Counted from the first letter of the stretch, positions 7,345 through 52,648 are shown. The stretch: 64,000 bases of DNA from Vicinamibacterales bacterium (GCA_965197395.1 OZ240205.1:1501524-1565523); one strand, 5' to 3'. Notes: generated from the letters alone by a model not told the origin. Program-made: numbers and translations.

Positions 7345-8991
7345 ATGAGAGGAGCGGACATCGGCAACAGACGAGACGCGCTTCACACGATTCTCCACTA
7401 TCACGAGGTCACCAAACATCGGTTTCAAGGCTATGCCAGGGGGCCCGGGCACCTTGACTGGGCCACGCAGCCGAACCCGTTTCGTCGGTACGAGGGCGCG
7501 CGCCTGGCGCCGCTACGGAAAACTCCGCCAACCGAGGCGCCGCGTTATGACGACGCCTTCGTTCACGGTCGGATATCGCCCGCGCTCGTGAGCGCGCAGA
7601 GCGTCTCGCAGGTCCTGTACGACAGCTTGGCGATATCGGCATGGAAGAGCGCCGGTGGCGCCCGTTGGGCGCTCCGGGTCAATCCGTCGAGCGGGAACCT
7701 GCATCCCACCGAAGGCTACGTGATCTGTGGCGCCATCGACGGCCTCTGCGGCACTCCCATGGTCTGTCACTACGCACCAAAGGAACATGGGTTGGAAGTA
7801 CGGGCGGAGTTTGGGACCGAGCTGTGGCACGCGGTCTGTGTCGGGTTTCCCAAGGACACGTTCTTCGTCGGACTCACGTCCATTCCCTGGCGGGAAGCAT
7901 GGAAGTACGGTCAGCGCGCGTATCGCTATTGTCAGCACGATGTCGGTCATGCCATCGGTGCGATCAGTGTCGCCGCAGCCGGCCTGGGATGGCGGACGAC
8001 GTTGCTGGATGATCTGGGCACGGATGAGCTGGCGCTCCTCCTGGGCACCGGGCGGGATCACGACGCTGAACCGGAAGAACCGGACGTGCTCATCGCTGTG
8101 GTCCCGTGTGACGCGGACAGGCGTGAGGGCCGTCTCCCCAAGGACTCGATTCTGGCTTTTGCGTCGCTTGACTGGCGGGGCACACCGAATCAACTGAGTC
8201 CGTCTCACGTGGAGTGGGGCGTCGATGAACCTGCCGAGGCGACGCGAACGACGCCTGGTCTCGGTCGATACGAGGCGCGTGGCGACCCGCCGGCGCAGTG
8301 GTCGTTGGACCCCCGTCCGCTCTCCCTTCGCACGCTGATCCGTCAGCGCCGTAGTGCGGTCGCCATGGACACGACGACTCGAATCGATCGCACGACGTTC
8401 TATCGGATCCTTCACAAGACGGTGGCCGTGCCCGGCAGCGTTCCCTTCAGCACCCTCCCGTGGAAGCCGCACCTTCACTTGGCCATTTTCGTTCACCGGG
8501 TTGATGATCTTGCTGCTGGTCTCTACTTCCTCGTTCGCGACCAGTCACAGAAGCCGGCGCTCGAGGCCGCCCTCACGCAGGCTGGGGAGTGGCGGCGTCC
8601 CCCCGGTTGCCCCGACGAGCTCGACCTGTATTGCTTAGCCGAGGGCGATACGCAACACGCCGCCCGACAGGTATCGTGTTTTCAGGAGATCGCAAGCGAT
8701 GGGTGTTTCAGTCTCGGCATGATTGCCGAGTTTGAGCGGCCATTGCACCGGTACGGCGCCTGGTTTTATCCTCGTCTGTTTTGGGAGGCCGGAGTCGTCG
8801 GCCAGGTGCTCTATCTGGAAGCCGAAGCCACCGGTATCCGGAGTACCGGCATCGGTTGCTATTTCGACGACCCGATGCATGACGTCCTCGGCCTCAAAGA
8901 CCGGACCTATCAGGACCTCTACCATTTCACCCTCGGCGGTCCCATCGAGGACACTCGACTGACCACGCTCCCGGCGTATCCAGACGAGTAG
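7345..8991 (+). CDS. SagB/ThcOx-type dehydrogenase (tandem nitroreductase-fold domains)
   Basis: The N-terminal 'ILHYHEVTKH', 'NPSSGNLHPTE' and a C-terminal nitroreductase-like half ('GIGCYFDD') are present. The size is ~550 aa. Confidence 0.65.
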   Translation: MRGADIGNRRDALHTILHYHEVTKHRFQGYARGPGHLDWATQPNPFRRYEGARLAPLRKTPPTEAPRYDDAFVHGRISPALVSAQSVSQVLYDSLAISAWKSAGGARWALRVNPSSGNLHPTEGYVICGAIDGLCGTPMVCHYAPKEHGLEVRAEFGTELWHAVCVGFPKDTFFVGLTSIPWREAWKYGQRAYRYCQHDVGHAIGAISVAAAGLGWRTTLLDDLGTDELALLLGTGRDHDAEPEEPDVLIAVVPCDADRREGRLPKDSILAFASLDWRGTPNQLSPSHVEWGVDEPAEATRTTPGLGRYEARGDPPAQWSLDPRPLSLRTLIRQRRSAVAMDTTTRIDRTTFYRILHKTVAVPGSVPFSTLPWKPHLHLAIFVHRVDDLAAGLYFLVRDQSQKPALEAALTQAGEWRRPPGCPDELDLYCLAEGDTQHAARQVSCFQEIASDGCFSLGMIAEFERPLHRYGAWFYPRLFWEAGVVGQVLYLEAEATGIRSTGIGCYFDDPMHDVLGLKDRTYQDLYHFTLGGPIEDTRLTTLPAYPDE

Positions 8992-9035: not shown

Positions 9036-10511
9036 TCAACGCGAGACGTCTACGGCGCGCCATCGTCCGAGCGCCGCCACGATCTCGCGCCGCGCCGCGC
9101 CGGGCCGCTCCGGCTGGTGGTTGACGAAATAGCAGAAGATCACGGGCGCTTCGAGCTGAGGGTCGAGGACCCCGGCGAGCGCGACCGTGTGACGGAGCGT
9201 TCCGGTCTTCGCTGCAATCGGTGGCGTGCGCGGCCACGCCGCCAGCGTGCCCTCGCCGGGCCCGACCATCCGATCGAGCATCGTCCTGCCCCAGGGTTGT
9301 TCGACCGCATGCGCGAGGACGCGCACGACGGCGTTGGGTGTCACCAGGTTCGACGGCGAGAGACCGGAGCCGTCCTGGATCCACAGGCGTTCACGCGGCC
9401 GCGGGTCGTCGCGGAGGAGGCTGGTGACGAAGTCGGAGATGACGTCGACGCCGTCGTCGAAGCGACCGCTGCCCGCCACTTCCAGCGCCAGCGTCAGCGT
9501 CAGCATGTCGGCGTACCAGTTGTGGCTCTCCGTGAGAACCTGCTCCAGGACGTCTTCGAGGCGGCGCGACCTGAGCTCGGCCAGCGTGGTGACCTGTCGA
9601 GGCCGTGCGACCGGCTGCGGCTGCAGCCGCACCGCACCGTCGAGCCGCACGCCGGCTTCGCCCAGCGCCTCGCGCAGTCGGCGCCCGGCGCGAACCGCGG
9701 GCGCCGGGTCGCTGGCGGTCACCACGAACGGGGCTTCGCTGATCGGGTACTCGCCGCGTAGCAGCAGCGTGTCGGTGCCCCACACCGGCACGAAGTCGAG
9801 CGTGCCTGCGCCGTGCCGTCCTGCGCCGACTGTTGTCGAGTGGTTGATCACCTCGATGCCGTCAGGAACCCGGACGCGCGCCGGCTCGCCAATCGCACGC
9901 CCCGGTGCGACACGAACCGTGATCGTGGCTTCATCGATCGCCAGCGGTGCCGCCGGCGTGCCGTATCTATACGGTAGATCGCCGTAGGAGCGATCGATCG
10001 GATGACGACGGCCGGGAAACCGAGCGGCGTTGACGACCAGGTCGCCGCTGATGCGGCGGAGGCCGTGAGCGCGAATCTGGTCGGCCAGCGTCGCCAGAGG
10101 TTCGGCGGCACCACCGTCGAAGAACGCGTCGGACCATGTCGGATCGCCGCCGGGCTCGATGACCAGATCCCCCTCGAGGATCGCGCCGGTCACCGTCCCG
10201 GCCGACGTCAGGCGGGTGCGCCACCGGTACTCCCCTCCAAGGTGTTCGAGGGCCGCCGCCACCGTGATCACTTTGAGGACGGACGCCGGCACGAACAGGC
10301 GGTCGGCGTTCAGCTCGTCAATCACCTCGTGCTCGCCGCCGTTGACGACGCGCACGGCCACATACCCCCGATGGGCACCATCGACGGGGGGTGCCGGCGG
10401 CTGCGCCACGGCCCGCTCGGCCGAGGACAGCGCCAGAAGCGCCGCAGACAGAGTGAGCAAGAGCGGGCGCCGAGCGCGAGGTGTGGGACGGGCGGCCCCG
10501 GGCGACGTCAT
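9036..10511 (-). CDS. dacB: D-alanyl-D-alanine carboxypeptidase/endopeptidase, PBP4 family (peptidase S13)
   Basis: It has the SxxK motif 'PASVLKV', 'DGSGLSPSN' and 'KTGTL'. The start was trimmed to ATG 10511 ('MTSPGAARPTPRARRPLLLTLSAALLALSSA', a signal peptide). The track start at 10919 overlaps the divergent gene; ATG 10583 is an alternative. Confidence 0.85.
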   Translation of the reverse strand: MTSPGAARPTPRARRPLLLTLSAALLALSSAERAVAQPPAPPVDGAHRGYVAVRVVNGGEHEVIDELNADRLFVPASVLKVITVAAALEHLGGEYRWRTRLTSAGTVTGAILEGDLVIEPGGDPTWSDAFFDGGAAEPLATLADQIRAHGLRRISGDLVVNAARFPGRRHPIDRSYGDLPYRYGTPAAPLAIDEATITVRVAPGRAIGEPARVRVPDGIEVINHSTTVGAGRHGAGTLDFVPVWGTDTLLLRGEYPISEAPFVVTASDPAPAVRAGRRLREALGEAGVRLDGAVRLQPQPVARPRQVTTLAELRSRRLEDVLEQVLTESHNWYADMLTLTLALEVAGSGRFDDGVDVISDFVTSLLRDDPRPRERLWIQDGSGLSPSNLVTPNAVVRVLAHAVEQPWGRTMLDRMVGPGEGTLAAWPRTPPIAAKTGTLRHTVALAGVLDPQLEAPVIFCYFVNHQPERPGAARREIVAALGRWRAVDVSR

Positions 10512-35823: not shown

Positions 35824-38064
35824 CTACTTCGCCAATGGATCGGGCCGAATCTGGAAGTGCACCATCTTGCTCTTGGTGCCCTTGCCGCCTTCGGTGTGCC
35901 AGACGTAGTTCGTTCCGTAGTTGGCCCAGAGGCCACGGCCCTTCCACCCGGCGTTCGGATCGTCGATCCGTCCGTCGAGCCCCCGCGAGTAGAACGCCAT
36001 CGGATACGGCACGCGCAGGATGGTCCACTCGCCGCTCTCCGGATCGAGCGCCAGCAGTGAATCCGACGTCGAGCCGTCGGCGACCGGGATGTTTTCGCCG
36101 AGCCCGAGCGTGTTGTACTGGTCGACCCAGCTGTAGTAGTGGAAATCGGCACTGCCCGGTGTGTTGACACCCTTCATCTGCGGGCCCGGCACCTGATAGA
36201 GCGTCCAGCCTTCGGGGCAGTGCTGGCCGGTCGCGTCGGGGCCGTTCGTGACGGCGCACTCCGTCCGGTCGAAGCTCGCCATGTGGCTGCTACCTGACAG
36301 CGCCGTCCAGATGACGCCGTTCCGATCGACGTCAATGCCACGCGGCGCGCTGCCGGTCTTCATCGCGTCGATGTCGGGGTTCTCGATCGACGGCGGCTCA
36401 TAGACCTCGGCGATGCAGGTCTCGGGCGGGTTGTCGCCACGCTCGAGACGGACCAGACGGCCCGGGAAGGGCCCGGTGCGGCTGATCCAGATCGAGTCAT
36501 CGGTCGGGCTCGCGATGATGCCGTAGCCGAATCCGGCGATTCGCGTGTCCAGGCTCGAGTCGACCTCGCCCTCACCACGCGGGTTGGGCTCGTTCCATGG
36601 CTTGGTGATCTTGCCGTCGCCGTTGGTGTCGATGACCGTCGGGCACCATCCCTGCGAGAACCGCTCGTCGCCGGTCTCGTCGTAGACCTTCGTGTCGATC
36701 CAGCCGACGACATTGCCGTCGCCGCTGAACCAGAGCGTGTCGTTCGCATCCTCACCGAACTGCAGGTGATGGGTCCCGAAGCAGGTGTCGATCAGCACGA
36801 ATGCTTCGGTCTCCGGATCGTAATACGACGCCTGCCGACCGCTCCTCTCCACCGGGAAGAACTTCGCGTAGTCGTTATCCGACCCCTCCTTGCACCAGTC
36901 CGGGTTCGGACGAGCGCGAACGGTGGAGGTCATCCAGACGCGACCCTTCTGGTCCATCATCGGGTTGTGAGGATCAGCGGAGTTCTCGTGCCCGTCTGGC
37001 CCGCCAGCCCCCCAGAGGAGCTGGTCGCCCCAGTAATACGACGGCTGGAGCTGCGTCTGCGGGAAGCGCGACGGCACGCTGTCGGGATCGTCCGGTCGCA
37101 CCGGAATCGGCAGCTCGACGGCGGTGTTCGCGATCGGGTCGACGACGGTCAGGCTGCCGTGCCCTGCCGAGACACCGTAGACCGGTCCGTAGCCGTTGAC
37201 CGTCGGATTCCGCTTGTCCGTGGTGATCTCGTCGTGGATGAAGGCGCTGTCTTTCCCCCAGTCCCACAGGGTCACCACGAGATTCCGCTCGACGCCCTTC
37301 GGACGGGGCGGCCGGGGCGGCGTCTCGCCGGCGGCGATCCGGTCCGTCCAGTCGGCGAACATCTCGAGCGCGCGCTGTCGCCCGAACCGGTTCATCGTGC
37401 CGTTCATCGACGTGCCGCGCTGGCCGGTCTGGACGCGGTGATCCCATGCCGCCACGGTCGAGTCGAAGTCGTCGCGGCGCTGCACGACGCGCGTCGCGGT
37501 GTTGCCGAGCTGGTGGCAGAGCTGGCAGCCCTGCTTCATGACGTCGACCCACGCCCCCTGGCTCTTGAGGTTCTCCGAGATCCCGTTGCCGTCGGGACCG
37601 GTGCCGGGGAACTCATGCGCGGCCGGCGGCTCGATCAACGAGTACCAGTAGTTGCCGGGGTAGTACTGCGCCGCGGCTCGCTCGTTCGGTGCCACGACCC
37701 CGGTGAGACTCACCTCGTCGGTGGTCGGCGACAGCTTGACCTTCTCGGAATCGACCAGGCCATAGCCCCGCACCCAGACGTCGTAGGTCACGTCGGGCAG
37801 CTCGGGGAGCACGTATCGTCCGTTGTCGTCGGTCACGACGATCTTCACGAACTTCGTTTCGAGCTCCTCGGTCTCGGCGATGACCCAGACGCCGGCCTCA
37901 CGACCGGCGCTGCTCTCGACGACGCCGCTGATGTACCCATCGGCCGCCGCGGCCTCCTCGGCGCTTGGCAGGGCCACGATGGCGCCGATCAAGCCGCCGA
38001 GTGCCACCGTGCAAACGGCGAGACGCACCCGCGTGCGTCGTGGTGATTGTGTCCGCGCGCTCAT
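35824..38064 (-). CDS. Exported CarboxypepD_reg-like domain protein with a CxxCH motif and a large beta-rich C-terminal region
   Basis: It has a signal peptide. 'GYISGVVESSAGREAGVWVIAE...DDNGRYVLPELPDVTYDVWVRGYG' is a carboxypeptidase-regulatory-like fold. 'MKQGCQLCHQLGN' is a CxxCH motif. The start was trimmed to ATG 38064. Confidence 0.65.
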   Translation of the reverse strand: MSARTQSPRRTRVRLAVCTVALGGLIGAIVALPSAEEAAAADGYISGVVESSAGREAGVWVIAETEELETKFVKIVVTDDNGRYVLPELPDVTYDVWVRGYGLVDSEKVKLSPTTDEVSLTGVVAPNERAAAQYYPGNYWYSLIEPPAAHEFPGTGPDGNGISENLKSQGAWVDVMKQGCQLCHQLGNTATRVVQRRDDFDSTVAAWDHRVQTGQRGTSMNGTMNRFGRQRALEMFADWTDRIAAGETPPRPPRPKGVERNLVVTLWDWGKDSAFIHDEITTDKRNPTVNGYGPVYGVSAGHGSLTVVDPIANTAVELPIPVRPDDPDSVPSRFPQTQLQPSYYWGDQLLWGAGGPDGHENSADPHNPMMDQKGRVWMTSTVRARPNPDWCKEGSDNDYAKFFPVERSGRQASYYDPETEAFVLIDTCFGTHHLQFGEDANDTLWFSGDGNVVGWIDTKVYDETGDERFSQGWCPTVIDTNGDGKITKPWNEPNPRGEGEVDSSLDTRIAGFGYGIIASPTDDSIWISRTGPFPGRLVRLERGDNPPETCIAEVYEPPSIENPDIDAMKTGSAPRGIDVDRNGVIWTALSGSSHMASFDRTECAVTNGPDATGQHCPEGWTLYQVPGPQMKGVNTPGSADFHYYSWVDQYNTLGLGENIPVADGSTSDSLLALDPESGEWTILRVPYPMAFYSRGLDGRIDDPNAGWKGRGLWANYGTNYVWHTEGGKGTKSKMVHFQIRPDPLAK

Positions 38065-38131
38065 AACGACTCCTCCTCGCTCAGCATCCCAATCGGTTGT
38101 TGAACAGAACCGGTTCACGTTCGTGCTCACG

Positions 38132-44961: not shown

Positions 44962-45065
44962 AATGGCGCGCACGCGTGAGCTCCGCGATAGTCGCCACCG
45001 TCCGGGTCAGCGGCTGACGGCGGTCTTGCGGAAGTGGCGCGCGTGTAGAAGGTCGATAGACGATA

Positions 45066-45603
45066 TTAGACACCCCCGTTAACGGAAGATCCGTTAGAGG
45101 CTTTGTTGTAGATCACCGGCATTCGCCCTTTCCACTTCTCCCATATGTCATCTCCAGTGATCAGATCTGCCATGAAGTGAGCCACGTTGATTCGACTGGT
45201 CACGCCCGCATCAAAGGTCGCGCTTCTAATCGGTGAAGGATGGATTTCGTACTCGGTGACTTCGGCCTCATTGATCAACGTGTCCGGACGAACCGCAGCC
45301 CACTCGATGTCACTGTCGCTGTGGCCGATCGCGACTCGCAAATAGTCCGCAGACTGTTCATTGTCCACGTGTGGTCAGCAGTAGACGAAGAAGCCCAATG
45401 ACGCACTTCTGACGAAACGAAACCCGCTCGTCAAGATCGCGGTTGCTGTTGCCAACCGTGTTCATGAGCACAAACCTGTTTGGCGTCGCGGACGTGCCTG
45501 CCTTGATAGCCTTGCACAAGCGGCGAACTGTATCCGTGACAAGCCTGCGCGGATGTCCGTAGAGACCCTTCACGCTCATGTTGTGTCCCAGACACGAAGC
45601 CAC
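45066..45603 (-). pseudogene. NAD(P)H-binding (atypical SDR/NmrA-like) gene remnant: N-terminally truncated and frameshifted
   Basis: Two adjacent ORFs in different frames join as '...FVLMNTVGNSNRDLDERVSFRQKCVIGLLRLLL' / 'VDNEQSADYLRVAIG...WAAVRPDTLINEAEVTEYEI'. No Rossmann GxxGxxG part is present. GC content is clearly lower (~50% by eye) than the surroundings. Confidence 0.5.
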
Positions 45604-45920
45604 CTGTCCACCGGCTTCGCTCTGGCTTGTTCCGGTGACATGTACGCCGCCGTCCCGAGGATGATGCCCGCCCTTGTAGCAACAGCGGTGAGCGTCGGGG
45701 ACTGCGATGGGTCGCCTTCGGGTGTCGTGTCTAACGCCTTCGCCAGCCCGAAATCCACCACCTTGGCGGTCCCGTCGTCGCGCACTTTGATGTTCGCGGG
45801 CTTGAGGTCCCGATGGATCACGCCCGCTTCGTGGGCGGCCTCCAACGCCTCGGCGATCTGCTTCGCAATCGGCAGCGCCTCATCCAGCGGGATCGGCCCC
45901 TTCGCTATCCGGTCGCAAGG
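45576..45920 (-). pseudogene. Internal fragment of a Ser/Thr protein kinase catalytic domain
   Basis: 'ALEAAHEAGVIHRDLKPANIKVRDDGTAKVVDFGLAKAL...GTAAYMSPEQARAKPVD' covers subdomains VIb-VIII only. There is no Gly-loop/VAIK part upstream and no continuation downstream. Confidence 0.6.
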
Positions 45921-45939
45921 GTCGGGCCCCGGCCCGCAG

Positions 45940-46155
45940 GTGAGCTTCGACGTTCGCAGCCTGTTCTTCACGCAGAAGCAGTTGCGTGGATCAATGGCCG
46001 GCGACATCGAGGACCTGCAGTGGGGTCTGGAGCAAGTCCGCGCAGGGCGCATCAGACCTCTCGTAGACTGGACCCTGCCGCTCAGCGAGGCGGCCGAGGC
46101 ACATCGTCTGATCTCGACGAACCAGGTGGCCGGCAACCTCGTGTTGCTGCCGTGG
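45940..46155 (+). pseudogene. C-terminal fragment of a zinc-type/quinone oxidoreductase (MDR family)
   Basis: 'VSFDVRSLFFTQKQLRGSMAGDIEDLQWGLEQVRAGRIRPLVDWTLPLSEAAEAHRLISTNQVAGNLVLLP' matches only the last ~70 aa of MDR oxidoreductases. No upstream part is present. Confidence 0.5.
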
Positions 46156-46192
46156 GCAGCACAGGAAGCAGGGCAGGAGGGTGATTTGACGA

Positions 46193-46447
46193 ATGCCGTT
46201 AACGGACCTCCGCGGTCTCGTTCGGACCGCCGACGACACGCTCGCCGGGGGTGTGCGGGTGTTTCTTGGTCTGCTGTTTTTGATGACCGGCGTGATGAAG
46301 CTGGTCGTGCCGATGCTCGCTGACGCCTGGGCAGGCCAGTTGCTGGCGGCCGAGCTCCCGTTCTTCGCGCTGTCCCGCTTGAGTGTCCCGTTCGTGGAGA
46401 TGGCGGTCGGGGCGCTACTGGTGGTCGCGTCTCGATCGCGCGTGTAA
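46193..46447 (+). pseudogene. DoxX-family membrane protein, C-terminally truncated
   Basis: 'GGVRVFLGLLFLMTGVMKL...PFVEMAVGALLVV' is followed by an early stop. At 84 aa it is short of the ~130-150 aa I expect for the family. Confidence 0.4.
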
Positions 46448-46473
46448 TGCGAAACGGGACCGGCGATTCGAGA

Positions 46474-47799
46474 TTACGGCTTCGCGATGTTCCAGTACAC
46501 GCCGGCGCCGCCGCCAGCGTTTCCGATGCGGGCCAACAGCGCGACTCGCTCGAGGTCCTCGGAGCGTCCCTCCGGGTCGGTGAACGCGTAGATCGCCTGC
46601 CCCCGGTTCTGACCGGGCACCGTGTCGCCCGCGTAGGTGTAGAGCGCGAACCCCTTATAGGCCCACTGGTTGGTGCCATCCCGCCGGGTGATGACTTCCC
46701 AGAAGCCGCTCGACCGCGCACCGTCAGGCGCGCTGAACGGACGCCAGGTCTCCAAGCAGTCGACATCTGCGCAGGCATCGCCGCCGAGTCGCTTCCCCCT
46801 GAAGTAGGCGACCTTGAAGCTGTCGCGCAGGTTTCGCCCGCCGAAATACTTCTCGAAGGCCGAGCCGATGTACAGGGTCATGCCGTTCAATGACAGGACA
46901 TCACCGTACCCCTCCAGCGCGGTGACGGCCACGTCGGGAGGGCTGAAGTGCGTCGTGAGCGCGGCCACCTCCCACCTGACATCGACCCCCGGCTTGCGAA
47001 CATCTCCGGGCAGCAGGTCGCCCCCGTGGCGATAGAGCGGACGCTCCTTGTACGCCCACTGCCTGAAGCCGTCCGCGCGGGTCATGACGGAAAAGTCGCC
47101 AACGTCGAGGGCGAGCGCGGAAGCCGCCACGGGCAGCCACTGACTCCCGCGTGGGGCGTCGCCGGCGAATGTGTAGAGGGGACGACCGGCGAAATCGGTC
47201 AACACGACCGCCCGCGCCGAGGCCACCAGCCCGACCTCGATGCCGGCCGGCCGCGGCATCGACGCCGCCGGATCGAACCGAGCGACCTCCCAGCCCTCGG
47301 GTGGCACCAGCGACCCCGCCTCCACCGGCCCCGCCGCGGTCTTCGAACTCGCCGTCTCGGCCAGACCGACGTTGGTGGCAACCTCTCCCGGCTCCTGCTC
47401 CTTCGACCAGGTGTACAGGGGACGCGACCGATACGCCCATTGCAGCTGTCCATCTGCCCGGCGCACCAACGACCAGTCGCCGAACGCGCTCGCGTCATCG
47501 TCCTGGGCTAGCAGTGGCGGGAATTCCGCGGCGCAGTCACCTGCGCAATTCGAGACGCCGGGCTGGTCGCCGTGGGAGAACAAGAGGGTCCAGCCCCCGG
47601 CGTCCCCGAGCCGCGTCCACAGCACCTGGTCCGACGAAATCGGCAAGTCCCTGACCACCTCCACCAGGGTCACACCTGGCGGCGTGGTCGACAGCACCAC
47701 CCATTCCTCCCCCGACGCAGACGACGGGGCCGCGACGACGACCGCCGTGATGACGAGCGAGAACCAGCCCGCCGATGCAGAGTGTCGCACACACATCAT
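46474..47799 (-). CDS. Exported repeat protein of the COG4315 / 'lipoprotein with Yx(FWY)xxD motif' type
   Basis: The repeated units are 'DGQLQWAYRSRPLYTWSKEQEPGEV', 'DGFRQWAYKERPLYRHGGDLLPGDV' and 'DGTNQWAYKGFALYTYAGDTVPGQNRG'. The start was trimmed to ATG 47799 (signal 'MMCVRHSASAGWFSLVITAVVVAAPSSASG'). Confidence 0.7.
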   Translation of the reverse strand: MMCVRHSASAGWFSLVITAVVVAAPSSASGEEWVVLSTTPPGVTLVEVVRDLPISSDQVLWTRLGDAGGWTLLFSHGDQPGVSNCAGDCAAEFPPLLAQDDDASAFGDWSLVRRADGQLQWAYRSRPLYTWSKEQEPGEVATNVGLAETASSKTAAGPVEAGSLVPPEGWEVARFDPAASMPRPAGIEVGLVASARAVVLTDFAGRPLYTFAGDAPRGSQWLPVAASALALDVGDFSVMTRADGFRQWAYKERPLYRHGGDLLPGDVRKPGVDVRWEVAALTTHFSPPDVAVTALEGYGDVLSLNGMTLYIGSAFEKYFGGRNLRDSFKVAYFRGKRLGGDACADVDCLETWRPFSAPDGARSSGFWEVITRRDGTNQWAYKGFALYTYAGDTVPGQNRGQAIYAFTDPEGRSEDLERVALLARIGNAGGGAGVYWNIAKP

Positions 47800-47827
47800 C
47801 GGACCTCGCAAAGCCTTCCGCGCGCGC

Positions 47828-49168
47828 TCACGCCAGGAGCTCGGTGAAGGGCCTCGACACCTGATTCGACTCGGTGCCCCAGCTTCCACGACCGACACCC
47901 AAAGCCTGCTGCACCGTGAACCCCACACGCGTCGCCGCGTCACCTTCCGCGGCGATATGGTAGCCCGTCTTCATCCGGCCACCGCCGCTGCCGGCGGTGA
48001 GAATCGGCAGGCGTTTCATCGAGTGCATTCTCGCCTCGCCGTGGTCGGTAAACGCAAAGATCACGCTTCGATCGAGCAGCGTGCCGTCGCCTTCGCGGAT
48101 CGCGTCCAACGCCTGCACGAGCTCCACGAAGAAACCCATGCATCGCTCCGCGATCCACTTGCACTTGACCTGATACCCGAGCTGCGTATCGACCGGTTCT
48201 TCGTGCGTCAGCGCATGATAGCCATTCGGCTCTCCCGGCGCGCGGAGCCTGGAGAGCGACGCACCCAGGGTGAGGTTGAAGACCCGCGTCTGACCGCAGG
48301 CCAAGGCATGCGCCATCAATTGCGCGAATTGCCGGTGCGTTTTTTCCACCTGGGGGAGGAGCGGACCGATGTCGTCGGTCGCGGCGCCGGGCATCGTACA
48401 CGCCGGCAGCGGTTCAGGTTTCTCCAGCTCGAACGCGAGCTTCTGCTCGAGATCGCGAACGGACGAAAAATACTCGTCCAACCGCGCACGATCCGACGCC
48501 GACACGGCGCCCATGAGATCCTTCCGCTGGTCCGCCACCGCCGACAGCACGCTCTGGCGCACCATCGTCCCCGGGTCGGGCACGAAGTCTGCCCCACTCG
48601 GATCGCGGAAACCGTCCCCGAAGATGCGGGTGTAGAGGGCAAGCGGTGATGTCGCGGAAGGGTTCATACCACTCGATCCGCGCGCGCTCCAGCCGGCCCG
48701 GCTGTCGCCGCCGCTGGTGGCCTCGAGAGAACGGAACCGCGTGCCCTTGCCGATCTGTTCGCCAATGATGGTGTCGATGCTCGCCGTGTAGTTGCTGGCG
48801 TTCCGCGACACCCTGCCGGTCGCCTGGCCTTGCGCGCCCGAGAAGTGGTTCTGGTTGATCTTGCCGTCGAGGAAGACCTGCATCCCGCTGAAGAGGTTCA
48901 TCTTCGGCTTGATCGCTTGCAAGCCGGCAATGTGTTCCGGCAGCTCGTAGTCGACGCCGGTGGTCGCGGGCTCCCAGCGGCCGGGAGCCAGGCCGAGTCC
49001 CCAGAACCAGGTGCCGAAACAGGGCTGTAGCCGCGCGCCGGTTGCCGCGTAGGCGGTGCCGTTGGTGTTCAGGAAACACTCCAGTATCGGTAGCCCGACG
49101 GCAACCGCCGTTCCGCCCAGGAAACCCCGCAGTACGGTGCGGCGGTCAACCTTCTTGATGTCACTCAT
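47828..49168 (-). CDS. DUF1552 domain-containing protein with Tat-like signal (divergent third copy)
   Basis: The N-terminus is 'MSDIKKVDRRTVLRGFLGGTAVAVGLPILE'. It is collinear with the other two DUF1552 proteins ('FTDHGEARMHS...LPILTAGSGGG' versus 'GGGISDGDQHSHMDLPLILAGGGAG'). Confidence 0.8.
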   Translation of the reverse strand: MSDIKKVDRRTVLRGFLGGTAVAVGLPILECFLNTNGTAYAATGARLQPCFGTWFWGLGLAPGRWEPATTGVDYELPEHIAGLQAIKPKMNLFSGMQVFLDGKINQNHFSGAQGQATGRVSRNASNYTASIDTIIGEQIGKGTRFRSLEATSGGDSRAGWSARGSSGMNPSATSPLALYTRIFGDGFRDPSGADFVPDPGTMVRQSVLSAVADQRKDLMGAVSASDRARLDEYFSSVRDLEQKLAFELEKPEPLPACTMPGAATDDIGPLLPQVEKTHRQFAQLMAHALACGQTRVFNLTLGASLSRLRAPGEPNGYHALTHEEPVDTQLGYQVKCKWIAERCMGFFVELVQALDAIREGDGTLLDRSVIFAFTDHGEARMHSMKRLPILTAGSGGGRMKTGYHIAAEGDAATRVGFTVQQALGVGRGSWGTESNQVSRPFTELLA

Positions 49169-49200
49169 CTTGATCTCCCCATGCCCTCAACACTTCAACC

Positions 49201-50814
49201 TCAGCCACCCGCATGTGTGTAGAAATCCACGTTCTGGGCGATGCGCCGCATGAGATCGCGCCAGGTGACGACGGTATCGACAAGCGCCGACGCCGTGTCG
49301 GCGAGCCACGTCCGTTCCCGGTCGGAGGGAGTCCTTGCCGTGCCGTAGGAGAACGCCCGGTTGACCAGACAGGATGTGGCGGCGGGGTCATCTCGGAGGA
49401 TCGTCGCAAACTCGGTGACTCCGGCGTACGGCCGGCGACGGAAGGTGCCGCTGGTGTCAATCAGTGCGCCGTTCTCGGTCGTCCGGTAGACACCGGACGC
49501 ATCAAAGACCTCGAGGGTCAGTCCGATCGGGTCGGTCACGCGGTGACACCCGGCACACGTCGGATTCGTCCGGTGCGCGGTCAGCCGCTGCCGCACGGTC
49601 CTGAAGGCCGGATCGGTCGTGTCCTGGACGATGCTGAAATCCACGTCCCCCGGCGGCGGCGGCACTCGCTGGCACAAGAGGTTTTCACGGACCGCCTTGC
49701 CCCGGAGTGTGGGAGATGTCGTGCCGGGATGCGAGTGCAAGGCCAGAAAGCTCACCTGCGTGAGGAGCCCCACGTGCGGGTCACCCTCGGGAAACCGATA
49801 GGGCACCCAGGGAACCGCGCCGCCCAGCTCCTGCGATCGGGGCAGCGGGACGCCGTAGATCGCCGCGAGTGACGGCGTCAGGAAGGTGTCACGCGTGACG
49901 AACAGATCCCGATAGTCGCCGTCCTTGGTGATCAGGTGATCGGCGATCGTGCGTAAGGTCTGCTCCCGCGCATCGTCCTGGACGTTCTTCGTGAACTTCG
50001 GGAAGAGACTCGGATCCACAGACAACGTCGCGAACCCGTCGAACCCCAGCATGTCAGAGAAGAAGGCTCGCAGACCGTCTTCGATGCGTGGCGACGAGAG
50101 CAGACGCTCGATCTGGCGATGCAGCCCCTCGGTCGAGAGCAACGCTCCGGACTGCGCCGCGGCCAACAGCTCGGTGTCCGGGGTGCTGTTCCACAGGAAG
50201 AAGCTGAGACGGGACGCCCGCGAGTACGCATCCAATCGCAGCGTGCCCGGCCGGGACGGATCCCGCTCGGCGTGCTCGGCGCGAAAGAGGAATTCCGGCG
50301 CGACGAGCATCCCCACCAGGGCGGCCTGCAATCCGGCATAGAAATCATCGAGCGTGCGCGCCGCCGATTCGGCGATGGCGACATACGACCGGACCTCGTC
50401 GTCGGTCGGGGGACGTCGGAACAGGAAGAGTCCCACCCGGGTGACGAACTGCGTGGCGCACTCCCGATCCGGCGCGGTGTTGGTGTCCGGCATGCACGGA
50501 ATGAGCGTCGCGCGGTGCCTGGGGTCGGTGACCTGGGCGGCGACTTGTTGGGCGAGCGCCTCATAGCGCTCCAGCGCCGCGGCGCTCAAGGCCAGCTTCC
50601 TGGCGCCGAGCGCCAACAGGCCATTTTCTCGAACCCCAGGATCGACGACGCCGTCGTCGACCTGGATGCCCTCGCCGAAGATGTCGTGGATGGTGCGCTC
50701 GTACTGCGCCGGCGTCAGCCGAACGAAGCTGATCTCTTCGGCGGCGATCAGCGGCACTGCACTGGCAACGATCAGACTCACGGCCAGCGCTGGCGCATGA
50801 GCCTTCCACCGCAT
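49201..50814 (-). CDS. Exported DUF1595/DUF1592/DUF1588/DUF1585-family protein, short form lacking the N-terminal CxxCH module
   Basis: It has 'RLSFFLWNSTPDTELL', 'TSPTLRGKAVRENLLCQRVPPPPGDV' and 'TNPTCAGCHRVTDPIG'. The start was trimmed to ATG 50814 ('MRWKAHAPALAVSLIVASAVPLIAAEE'). Confidence 0.75.
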   Translation of the reverse strand: MRWKAHAPALAVSLIVASAVPLIAAEEISFVRLTPAQYERTIHDIFGEGIQVDDGVVDPGVRENGLLALGARKLALSAAALERYEALAQQVAAQVTDPRHRATLIPCMPDTNTAPDRECATQFVTRVGLFLFRRPPTDDEVRSYVAIAESAARTLDDFYAGLQAALVGMLVAPEFLFRAEHAERDPSRPGTLRLDAYSRASRLSFFLWNSTPDTELLAAAQSGALLSTEGLHRQIERLLSSPRIEDGLRAFFSDMLGFDGFATLSVDPSLFPKFTKNVQDDAREQTLRTIADHLITKDGDYRDLFVTRDTFLTPSLAAIYGVPLPRSQELGGAVPWVPYRFPEGDPHVGLLTQVSFLALHSHPGTTSPTLRGKAVRENLLCQRVPPPPGDVDFSIVQDTTDPAFRTVRQRLTAHRTNPTCAGCHRVTDPIGLTLEVFDASGVYRTTENGALIDTSGTFRRRPYAGVTEFATILRDDPAATSCLVNRAFSYGTARTPSDRERTWLADTASALVDTVVTWRDLMRRIAQNVDFYTHAGG

Positions 50815-50894
50815 GCCAACCCTCCCCTCGGCGGCGTCCCGATCGTCGGGGTCGCGGCGTCCGGCTCGTGTCTCCACCAGGGTGAACATACCCC

Positions 50895-52115
50895 TCATCG
50901 TGCCGGTGATCGGTTGGCCGCCGGACCGTTGAACTTCGGGCCGTTTCCGACCGCGCGACCGACAACCTGCCCAGACATCGTGGTGTGGAACGCCGGGATC
51001 GCTTCCAACCAGTAGGCGGCCGAAATCGCGGTGTTCTCCCCCGTCGCCGGGTCGGGCACGCCGTCGGCAAGGCGCTTCATGGCGTAGTACGCCCCGGGCA
51101 GGTCGACTTGTCCGCTGCCCTCTCCGCGAATCGCCAAGAAGTGGTAGTAGTTCCTCCACGGTTGGTATCCACCGATGATTCCCCGCACGCTACCGTCCGG
51201 ATCCATCGTGAGGCGCACGTGAGTCTTGGCGAACCGGAGCACCGCATGGAACTGCGACTCTCCCTGCAGCGAAAAGTCCCCGGGCTCGATGCTCAGGACT
51301 CGGTCCCTGATCGTACCCTTGAATACACTGTGTGATCGTGGATCGGGGTCGATCACGAAGGTCGCTCCGGACAGCACGCCGCCGTGGGTGTCTCTCAGCA
51401 GGATGTTCAACGACCGGTCGAATGTCACCGTGACGTCTCCATCCCGGTCGAGGTCCGCCCCCGACACCGACATCAACCAGGCGGGCATCGAATCGATGGC
51501 GTTGTCCCAGACGATGCTCTCGTTGTACGGCACCACCGGACGGCGGACGTTGTAGACCTCAAAGCAGCCGAGCGCTCGCCACATCTGGTTGTCGACACCC
51601 TGCTCGTGGGACTCCGGATCCTCGAATGCATCGGGGCCAATCCGACCATCGAGGTTGAAGCCGTACGCAAACCGCCCCTGTGCGGTTCGAATATTCGGGT
51701 CGGGTACCAAGGCGGGAACGTTGCCCGGATTGACCGCGAACCCGTTCCACCCGTCGTCTCCCGCCCCGGCGCCGGCCCCGAAGAGCGCCGCGCCGTCGAC
51801 GCGGTTACCAGCCTCGTCCCGGCCGCCGTTGGCAATGATCGTCAGGGCTTCTTCCTCGCTGAAGCCGGCGCTGACCAGTCGCCGCGTTCGGAGCTCGAGC
51901 AGCCCCCCGTTGCCGCCCGCGGGACAGGTGTCCGTATTCGCGTAGGTCGCCGTGTGAAACATCGAGATCACGTAGCCGCGCGTTTCGCCGAACGCGCTCG
52001 ACGGGGTGCACAGCGCGATGAAAAGGGGCAGACAGACGCCGGTGATTCCCGCCCACACCAGGTGTCGAAGACGTGCTCCGCCAGCAGTCATGGACCCTCC
52101 ATCGGCAGACTTCAC
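50895..52115 (-). CDS. Exported hypothetical protein (no recognisable family)
   Basis: It has a signal-like 'LVWAGITGVCLPLFIALCTPSSAFGE', balanced composition and the same strand as the DUF1592-like gene, directly upstream of it. An alternative start is ATG 52091. Confidence 0.6.
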   Translation of the reverse strand: MKSADGGSMTAGGARLRHLVWAGITGVCLPLFIALCTPSSAFGETRGYVISMFHTATYANTDTCPAGGNGGLLELRTRRLVSAGFSEEEALTIIANGGRDEAGNRVDGAALFGAGAGAGDDGWNGFAVNPGNVPALVPDPNIRTAQGRFAYGFNLDGRIGPDAFEDPESHEQGVDNQMWRALGCFEVYNVRRPVVPYNESIVWDNAIDSMPAWLMSVSGADLDRDGDVTVTFDRSLNILLRDTHGGVLSGATFVIDPDPRSHSVFKGTIRDRVLSIEPGDFSLQGESQFHAVLRFAKTHVRLTMDPDGSVRGIIGGYQPWRNYYHFLAIRGEGSGQVDLPGAYYAMKRLADGVPDPATGENTAISAAYWLEAIPAFHTTMSGQVVGRAVGNGPKFNGPAANRSPAR

Positions 52116-52425
52116 TCCGGGTTAGACGCTCCGCGTTGAGCATGCCCCGAGCAAGGGCCTACGTCAAGTCGGATTCTGCGCCGATGCCTCGTTGGGTCCG
52201 CACCCAAGACAACGGTAATCTCGGGCAGCATGGCGGGTTCATGTCGGTGAGGGTCCTAGGAATGGTCCGCAGCTACGATCCTTGTCCCAACGCGCTGGAG
52301 CACGGCTCGGCCGATGTGAACCCGCGAGCGGGTGAACTGGGACGGCCCGTGGGCCGTCACGGAGGAGGCTATGCTGGGCTTGATGATGGACCGGCCGCTG
52401 TTGATGCTGTTGATCTCGTCAATCA

Positions 52426-52572
52426 GCCTGGGGGCAGAAGACGCTGCGTGAAATCACCCGCACCCACGTCCACGAACTCTTGGACAACCTCGTCGCGCTG
52501 GGCATGGGAGCCGGCGTGAACCGTGTGCAAGCGCTCGTGAGCCGGATGTTCACCGTGGCCACATGGAAATTG
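52426..52572 (+). pseudogene. Short remnant of a tyrosine recombinase/phage integrase (N-terminal SAM-like region)
   Basis: The frame translation 'AWGQKTLREITRTHVHELLDNLVALGMGAGVNRVQALVSRMFTVATWKL' fits the integrase pattern 'lG.k.l.eIt..dv..ll..l...G....aNR....ls.mf..A'. It is bounded by a stop at 52411 and diverges after ~50 aa. Confidence 0.45.
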
Positions 52573-52648
52573 TCACACACTCGCGTGTGTCCCGTCCTTT
52601 CAATGAGTTAGCCCGCTGGGCTATAAGCGCGCGGTGGACAAGGGCGCT

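Follow-up and report, generated by a model that had tools for sequence, protein, structure and literature searches.

Pairs of genes encoding PSCyt3/PSD2-5 proteins and proteins with DUF1552, a domain of unknown function (DUF), were recognised initially in Rhodopirellula baltica and subsequently in Verrucomicrobia (He et al., PMC5615132). Another kind of pair, DUF1501 with DUF1549/DUF1553 (PSCyt1/2, PSD1), is massively expanded in Planctomycetes, and nothing is known on the function of the PSCyt genes and their neighbours (He et al., PMC5615132). With dozens to hundreds of copies in Planctomycetes and Verrucomicrobia, the DUF1592-group and DUF1552 proteins are among the largest exported protein families without a known function. 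The locus analysed here lies in a stretch of 64,000 nucleotides from a Vicinamibacterales bacterium (GCA_965197395.1 OZ240205.1:1501524-1565523, referred to as the window), where positions 46474-52115 of the minus strand carry four genes, named A, B, C and D in their order of transcription, with a short-form relative of the described pairs (B and C) at their centre. This unit is one copy of a previously undescribed four-protein periplasmic module, and it is probable, if some way from assured, that it is a single operon encoding a self-contained module for processing imported substrates. Its genes and the elements referred to below, exported by the Sec or the twin-arginine translocation (Tat) pathway as predicted from their signals, are as follows.

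50895-52091, minus strand: gene A, 398-aa Sec-exported protein of a new family; likely ATG at 52091, behind GGAGG
49201-50814, minus strand: gene B, 537-aa Sec-exported short-form PSD3/PSD5/PSD4/PSCyt3/PSD2 protein (DUF1587/1595/1592/1588/1585, Pfam); ATG at 50814, behind GGGAGGG
49543-49557, minus strand: single haem c attachment motif CAGCH, residues 420-424 of B, read in the sequence
47828-49168, minus strand: gene C, 446-aa Tat-exported divergent DUF1552 protein (Pfam HXXSHH, PF07586, 148.3 bits); ATG at 49168
49139-49144, minus strand: codons for the twin arginines R9 and R10 in the Tat signal of C, DRRTVLRGF
48197-48217, minus strand: variant family motif H318-A-L-T-H322-E-E of C, in place of the canonical HxxSHH
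46474-47799, minus strand: gene D, 441-aa Sec-exported protein with four Lipoprotein_15 repeats (PF03640, COG4315; Pfam 122.7 bits in 4 stretches); ATG at 47799
52139-52167, minus strand: promoter-like element TTGACG, 17 nt, CATGCT, about 45 nt 5' of the start codon of A

All four open reading frames (ORFs) are intact, are separated by only 80 (A/B), 32 (B/C) and 28 nt (C/D), and show the codon-position GC content of real genes (0.80-0.85 at third and about 0.51 at second positions, GC3 and GC2). No internal terminator-like or promoter-like site above chance was found between 46474 and 52115, and a search of the unit and its leader for riboswitches and other RNAs gave none. A spacing of the type TTGACN-17-CATnnT recurs upstream of A in three other Vicinamibacterales loci (L007, L025 and L055), and because it is kept although the upstream genes differ in each of them, the element in front of A, which a generic sigma-70 scan did not call, is a candidate promoter that would fit a self-contained transcription unit. 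The short gaps and the lack of internal terminator-like sites support the reading that A-B-C-D probably form one operon. A preliminary description of this DNA had listed, on the minus strand, an exported 406-aa protein of no known family, a short-form DUF1592-group protein keeping a single C-terminal CAGCH, a Tat-signal DUF1552 protein and a COG4315-type repeat protein, all of which stood, with one amendment: the ORF of A spans 50895-52115, but the protein more likely has 398 aa from the ATG at 52091, the form in which it is found in the protein database.

The two core proteins are bona fide members of the families that define the PSCyt3/PSD and DUF1552 pairs, and they resemble these pairs in being adjacent and in the same order, in the haem motif of the PSCyt3 domain and in the Tat signal on C. 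They differ from them in that B lacks a cytochrome c domain and some 170 residues, in that C has HxxTHE rather than HxxSHH, and in that the partners of the pair are A and a Lipoprotein_15 protein rather than an ankyrin protein. The described type is itself represented in the window, since its two long-form cytochrome/DUF1552/ankyrin triads are of the same kind. B scores above the Pfam cut-offs for PSD4 (115.6 bits), PSCyt3 (100.5 bits), PSD5 (60.3 bits) and, more weakly, PSD3 (24.1 bits, cut-off 23), while PSD2 is slightly below (24.6 bits, cut-off 25.8). An hhalign comparison placed residues 102-531 of B on residues 400-822 of the 829-aa long form of the window (34% identity, probability 100%), leaving B without the N-terminal cytochrome c domain, of which Pfam found no trace, and without the 170 or so residues between PSD3 and PSD5. 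The haem motif itself is under evident conservation, CxxCH being present in 54 of 55 B orthologues and C420, C423 and H424 being invariant in their alignment. C covers positions 4-290 of the 307 of the HXXSHH profile (cut-off 30 bits) but is only 23-25% identical to the two canonical DUF1552 proteins of the window. Following the ankyrin gene of a long-form cassette, a 768-aa protein with only a weak CarboxypepD_reg match (35824-38130) was also seen, possibly a partner of this cassette that resembles an outer-membrane receptor.

How general this arrangement is was assessed by scanning one genome per species, which gave 178 loci encoding a relative of A, and by determining gene order through tblastn with the four proteins of the window in the 67 loci that had enough downstream sequence. 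The order A-B-C-D was found to be colinear in 64 of these 67, which span four phyla (with Acidobacteriota, Alpha- and Gammaproteobacteria and Marinimicrobia), the three exceptions being L052 (B-C-[A-D]), L070 (A alone) and L085 (D undetected). Carriers comprise Vicinamibacterales, Rhodospirillaceae and other Alphaproteobacteria, Steroidobacteraceae, Pseudohongiellaceae/OM182, Porticoccaceae and Marinimicrobia, and the same order was seen in metagenome-assembled genomes of Pseudomonadales, Rhodospirillaceae and Steroidobacteraceae, the last with two cassettes. Identities to A, B, C and D of the window co-vary across loci (Spearman 0.87-0.91). The four-gene set is thus a fixed and ancient cassette whose members are inherited together, not an ad hoc exchange of partners. 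This bears on the preliminary description, in which a retained core pair had its accessory genes swapped: the accessory genes are indeed conserved beside such pairs elsewhere, but with B at 34% and C at 23-25% identity to their long-form counterparts, the cassette is a separate old lineage with fixed partners. Likewise, the claim that this is a third pair holds within the window but not genome-wide, where DUF1552 has 43 matches, C being the lowest-scoring full-length one (149 bits versus 290-352).

Natural fusions strongly indicate which parts of the cassette touch. Among representatives of the A family, two proteins of 930-960 aa (P0141 and P0143) consist of A followed by PSD3-PSD5-PSD4-PSCyt3-PSD2, and six of 620-810 aa (P0122, P0145, P0174, P0182, P0198 and P0256) of A followed by Lipoprotein_15 repeats; at L052, a continuous A-D ORF of about 800 aa has a D part without a signal peptide of its own. 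In the A-B fusions, A stands directly before PSD3, which is the place of the cytochrome c domain in the long form of the window. The four proteins also differ in how fast they change. In six paralogous cassettes of one genome, mean pairwise identity is 53% for B and 52% for C but 41% for A and 39% for D, and orthologues rank in the same way (B and C over A and D) when compared with the window. Since A and D diverge faster, B and C can be regarded as a conserved core and A and D as variable parts, and the modular system that had been proposed finds its footing in this difference and in the position of A in the fusions. A lineage-specific synteny was observed as well in 11 Pseudohongiellaceae/OM182 loci (L043-L065), where a 155-aa exported protein is encoded about 10-600 nt downstream of D on the opposite strand, followed in several of them by a beta-lactamase-like esterase and a Baeyer-Villiger-type flavin monooxygenase.

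Gene A is clearly coding and represents a real, large and unnamed family. It has no match in Pfam or NCBIfam and none in the PDB by sequence-profile search. A word-indexed protein search returned at least 479 homologues, the best 120 of which are 53-86% identical; where a source is named, it is Acidobacteriota, Rhodospirillaceae, Steroidobacteraceae or Pseudomonadales. An exhaustive profile search extended the family to 837 representative clusters at E<=1e-3. The mature protein begins with ETRGYVISM, ETRGY being invariant directly after the signal peptide, and the alignment shows further invariant positions, namely two Cys (C56 and C176) and many Asp, Glu, Trp and Tyr; there is also a DxDxDG-like loop (D213-L-D-R-D217-G218). 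An AlphaFold2 model (mean predicted local distance difference test score, pLDDT, 69; predicted template modelling score 0.70) has a confident, beta-rich C-terminal half. Foldseek found nothing significant for this model in the PDB, the best match having E 0.03 and a template modelling (TM) score of 0.12, with small beta-barrels scattered above E 1. A Pfam scan of 30 distant relatives gave one Lipoprotein_15 fusion, one weak CHRD match and nothing else. A is single copy in the genome of the window, with no relative elsewhere in it. Two possible kinships were rejected: A is not a relative of the N-terminal part that the long form has and B lacks (hhalign probability 0.5%), nor of any other part of the long form, and A and D are not homologous (BLASTP E 1.8), a shared ORF cluster being an artefact of the fused L052 ORF.

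D, the only Lipoprotein_15 gene of the genome, has repeats with the motif Yx[FWY]xxD, and QWAY.G.PLYTY.GD..PGD is visible in the alignment. Its signal peptide has no lipobox Cys, and the protein is not a member of the SCO0930-type lipoprotein family (NF040526), against which it scores 92 bits with an equivalog cut-off of 275. In repeat 2 of the D of the window (47170-47200), a 10-residue deletion has removed a Cys pair that is kept in most orthologues and is also missing from L081.

An idea of the possible role of C came from its predicted fold. No PDB relative of B, C or D was found by sequence or profile, the likeness of C to sulfatases being below HMMER detection. The AlphaFold2 model of C (pLDDT 79.5) nevertheless retrieved 32 PDB matches with Foldseek at E<=1e-3, all of them in the alkaline-phosphatase superfamily (probability 0.97-1.0, E down to 1e-6), including S1 sulfatases, LtaS/LtaP, EptC, phosphonate monoester hydrolases (PMH) and cofactor-independent phosphoglycerate mutases. 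When C was compared by hhalign with four sulfatases of the same genome, TLLDRSVIFAFTDHGE of C fell on the sulfatase strand and its VVFTSDNG metal motif (E 0.003). Seven residues are invariant across cassette-type and canonical DUF1552 proteins (H108, D132, R163, H318, H322, D366 and H382), as are R9 and R10 of the Tat signal in all 38 proteins aligned; where the canonical motif has a third His, cassette-type C has Glu throughout, the first two His (H318 and H322) being among the invariant residues. The HxxxH pair and later His of C would follow the order of the second metal site of the superfamily, as in E. coli alkaline phosphatase and the nucleotide pyrophosphatases/phosphodiesterases (NPPs). 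C is hence very probably, on the strength of a model and a profile alignment, an alkaline-phosphatase/sulfatase-fold protein. It resembles the S1 sulfatases, PMH, LtaS and EptC in its predicted fold and in the strand followed by a D-H/N-G metal motif, but differs from them in lacking the C/SxPxR motif, in being exported by Tat and in always having a haem-protein partner. Outside the window, in the same genome (G000), four or five S1 sulfatase genes cluster directly beside two canonical DUF1552 genes (C8:344498-345421 and 348581-349513) in the region C8:332986-349513.

The cassette is present once in the genome of the window, beside about 40 long-form pairs, but in other lineages it has multiplied, as indicated by counts of DUF1552 and A-family genes in five genomes.

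G303, Rhodospirillaceae (holds L032), 3.9 Mb: DUF1552 26, all of the short type (133-177 bits), 0 canonical; A-family 34
G305, Marinimicrobia, 3.3 Mb: DUF1552 17; A-family 22
G304, Steroidobacteraceae, 5.6 Mb: DUF1552 8; A-family 12
G301 and G302, Pseudohongiellaceae/OM182, 2.6 and 2.9 Mb: DUF1552 5-6 canonical plus 1-2 short; A-family 1-2

Hidden Markov models built from the four alignments revealed stretches of G303 and G305 that are tandem arrays of A-B-C-D and B-C-D-A' cassettes, and the short cassette is therefore the expanded form in some Alphaproteobacteria and Marinimicrobia. Many of these copies lie close to TonB-dependent receptors. Scored as short-type C genes within 8 kb of a receptor plug domain and compared with a Poisson expectation, linkage was found for 17 of 26 genes in G303 (expected about 15%), for 7 of 8 in G304 (about 14%) and for 5 of 17 in G305 (about 13%), where many contigs are very short. 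One receptor is co-directional between two cassettes, and receptors flank the orthologous cassettes of L003 (alphaproteobacterial) and L005 (Steroidobacteraceae), an adjacency that neither the window nor other Vicinamibacterales loci show. Between receptor and A, L003 and L005 have small unannotated ORFs, of 158 and 161 aa in L003 (6704-7675) and of 648 and 185 aa in L005 (7183-9785), and it is possible that they encode further components.

These observations outline a model in which A, B, C and D probably act as one physical unit. Its core would be B, with one haem c, and C, with its predicted metal-binding alkaline-phosphatase/sulfatase fold, as in every DUF1592/DUF1552 pair, while A and D would make up a faster-evolving head that is attached to B, stands where the long-form systems have a cytochrome c domain and an ankyrin protein, and probably sets substrate specificity. 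With less certainty, the module would process organic substrates entering the periplasm through TonB-dependent receptors, in a role comparable to that of the enzymes encoded by polysaccharide- or carbohydrate-utilisation loci, and the group on which C would act might be an ester or something related. As to the haem of B, it could be structural or could pass electrons, for example to or from neighbouring pyrroloquinoline quinone (PQQ) dehydrogenases. Several points weigh against this model. The TM-scores of the Foldseek matches of C are just 0.33-0.45 and the hhalign probability of its alignment with sulfatases is 11%. The sulfatases of the genome carry CSPSR, CGPSR or CSPTR as nucleophile motif, whereas no C/SxPxR is present in C, which reads LGLAPGRWEP after strand 50-56 and is therefore not an S1 sulfatase; no Ser/Thr or other nucleophile can be assigned in it, so that it is possibly non-catalytic or performs a different chemistry. 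For A, the model has only intermediate confidence scores and matches no known fold, and binding of C to B, A or D is deduced from gene order alone. In the window, neither a TonB receptor nor a PQQ dehydrogenase adjoins the cassette, the nearest PQQ gene being some 13.6 kb away from C. With about 85 matches to the PQQ beta-propeller in the genome, moreover, proximity to such genes is weak evidence. Finally, no experimental or functional study of any of the four families was found in the literature searched or in the PDB.

The haem motif and the PQQ genes invite a different interpretation, namely that the module is mainly a redox enzyme, in which C would hold a cofactor and be catalytic, B would be its cytochrome c subunit and both would be wired to neighbouring PQQ dehydrogenases, without any hydrolysis. 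The precedent would be the SorAB sulfite dehydrogenase, which combines a Tat-exported catalytic subunit with a Sec-exported cytochrome c subunit. The cassette is like SorAB in having a Tat subunit and a Sec mono-haem partner, but C has no molybdenum or redox cofactor domain and B is far larger than a simple cytochrome. In keeping with such an enzyme are the conserved CxxCH of B, Tat export of C, its His-rich invariant set, and PQQ dehydrogenases that are immediate, co-directional neighbours of the cassette in loci of Pseudohongiellaceae, Vicinamibacterales and Steroidobacteraceae; in the genome of the window, moreover, 17 of 42 DUF1552 genes have a PQQ gene within 10 kb, compared with 8.8 +/- 2.6 for random positions. 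A DUF1587 domain is also found in Cbp2D of Cellvibrio, a proposed electron donor of lytic polysaccharide monooxygenases (PMC8981238). However, PQQ genes are extremely abundant in these genomes, and in Alphaproteobacteria and Marinimicrobia it is TonB receptors, not PQQ genes, to which the cassettes are linked. We also know of no oxidoreductase in the alkaline-phosphatase superfamily, and a redox enzyme of this kind appears rather unlikely, if a serious contender. A PQQ dehydrogenase as a fixed fifth gene was rejected, since it adjoins the cassette in many Pseudohongiellaceae and Vicinamibacterales loci but in only 1 of 14 alphaproteobacterial and 0 of 6 Marinimicrobia loci, and is absent beside the cassette of the window. 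At the other extreme, the module might not be enzymatic at all but serve in binding, as a scaffold or in envelope stress, C being a dead alkaline-phosphatase-fold protein and the haem purely structural. The missing nucleophile of C would be explained in this way, and both D, with its repeats, and A, with its beta-rich C-terminal half, resemble binding modules. Yet cassette-type and canonical DUF1552 proteins, at only 23-25% identity, have retained the same invariant His and Asp residues, Tat export and haem attachment would be costly for a pure scaffold, and dozens of paralogues beside importers fit substrate processing better, which makes a non-enzymatic role very improbable. Substrate processing by a four-protein module thus remains the preferred explanation.

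Two further explanations concern where the cassette comes from, and both draw on what flanks it.

44962-46470: gene fragments downstream of D, outside the cassette (profile matches)
52414-52611, plus strand: weak integrase-like fragment upstream of A, outside the cassette (Phage_int_M, E 0.025, 15 bits, cut-off 27)

The fragments match Pkinase in part (positions 92-181 of the 263 of the model), NAD_binding_10 and ADH_zinc_N_2 at their C-terminal ends and DoxX/MauE in its N-terminal part, so that the gene-fragment graveyard of the preliminary description is real; of its integrase remnant, there is a Phage_int_M-like fragment, but it is below threshold. It had been suggested that the unit, lying between the two, may have been laterally acquired, and in its strongest form the argument would be that it is cargo of a recently acquired genomic island whose insertion these remains mark. 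Distribution in the order is patchy: of the 301 genomes sampled, 15 have A (12 of the 29 in the family of the window, 2 of 30 in a second one and 0 in 17 other families), and presence varies even within genera. Close relatives at 86% and 77% identity have an intact cassette in other neighbourhoods, one with an insertion sequence (IS) element beside D, and no synteny of the flanks of the window (thiolase, TRAP, cyclase) with other carriers was found. In a maximum-likelihood tree of C, phyla are mixed: a clade of Pseudohongiellaceae arises from within acidobacterial branches (95/90), and the whole assemblage falls inside proteobacterial diversity, although the root is unsure as it rests on a very long outgroup branch. 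Against a recent island, GC3 is within the main mode of the genome and only slightly below that of the two long-form cassettes (0.85-0.90), neither a tRNA nor bracketing direct repeats were found near the cassette, the tree groups the copy of the window, with good support (99/96), with those of marine Vicinamibacteria, its nearest neighbours being 77-81% identical, and the locus of the closest relative has a short stretch upstream of A in common with the window. A recent island is accordingly improbable and, as a matter of history only, would not compete with the functional reading. The part of the suggestion that stands is the older one: the tree, as far as it can be read, implies inter-phylum transfer long ago rather than a recent import, and the cassette is a mobile accessory unit on evolutionary time scales, present here as a native-looking single copy.

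The gene debris, together with a B shorter than the long form, a C that scores lowest among full-length DUF1552 proteins of the genome and the Cys pair lost from D, could also be read as signs of decay, the unit being a truncated paralogue of the long-form cytochrome/DUF1552/ankyrin type that is breaking down. This has next to no chance of being correct and can be considered refuted, because orthologues 53-86% identical across phyla have colinear loci in the same order and invariant motifs, and because all four frames are intact with normal codon-position GC. Some traces of rearrangement were seen nearby. In translated comparisons with the locus of the closest relative (L096/L097), window positions 52325-52414 match 8272-8361 (77% over 30 residues) and 52117-52182 match 9911-9976 (68% over 22 residues), and the fumarylacetoacetate (FAA) hydrolase gene between these two stretches is absent from the window, which suggests a deletion next to its cassette. 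On L096 itself, a low-coverage contig (positions 11194-14261 and 16198-17414), B is split into ORFs of 286 and 283 aa and only 357 aa of C are left, either through decay or through assembly error, and the IS element (HTH_Tnp_1 and rve) lies just downstream of D.

Beyond its immediate relatives, the cassette can be compared with systems built on similar lines. It is like the DUF1501 and DUF1549/DUF1553 pairs, here likened by description, in pairing a Tat-exported protein with a large CxxCH protein, but its proteins belong to other Pfam families; DUF1501 is presumably of sulfatase fold as well. Closer in organization are the polysaccharide utilization loci (PULs) of Bacteroidota and the carbohydrate utilization (CUT) loci of Xanthomonas, both of them TonB-receptor-linked substrate utilization loci, with which the cassette shares, in genomes such as G303 and G304, many paralogous copies beside TonB receptors and the combination of a conserved core with fast-evolving parts. 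It differs from them in having no SusD, glycoside hydrolase or regulator, and no adjacent receptor in Vicinamibacterales loci. The broadest proposal would be that A-B-C-D represent a new class of TonB-receptor-coupled periplasmic enzyme complexes, in which a core of an alkaline-phosphatase-fold subunit wired to a haem protein is combined with an exchangeable A and D head, dozens of paralogues in marine and soil heterotrophs (Rhodospirillaceae, Marinimicrobia, Steroidobacteraceae, Pseudohongiellaceae and Vicinamibacterales) breaking down distinct components of dissolved organic matter. As a whole this is a tentative proposal, possible but to be doubted for now.

With four soluble exported proteins, one haem and informative fusions, the short cassette is the smallest self-contained version of the DUF1592/DUF1552 systems, and its carriers include the cultivable genera Pseudohongiella, Steroidobacter and Caenispirillum. 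The predicted fold of C, the variable A and D and the TonB-linked multiplication turn what was a purely descriptive pair of DUFs into a testable model of substrate processing, and a machine of this kind could matter for the turnover of organic matter in oceans and soils. If the broader proposal were true, the cassette would be a proteobacterial and acidobacterial counterpart of PULs and would, for the first time, open a way to the function of the whole DUF1592/DUF1552 superfamily in Planctomycetes and Verrucomicrobia.

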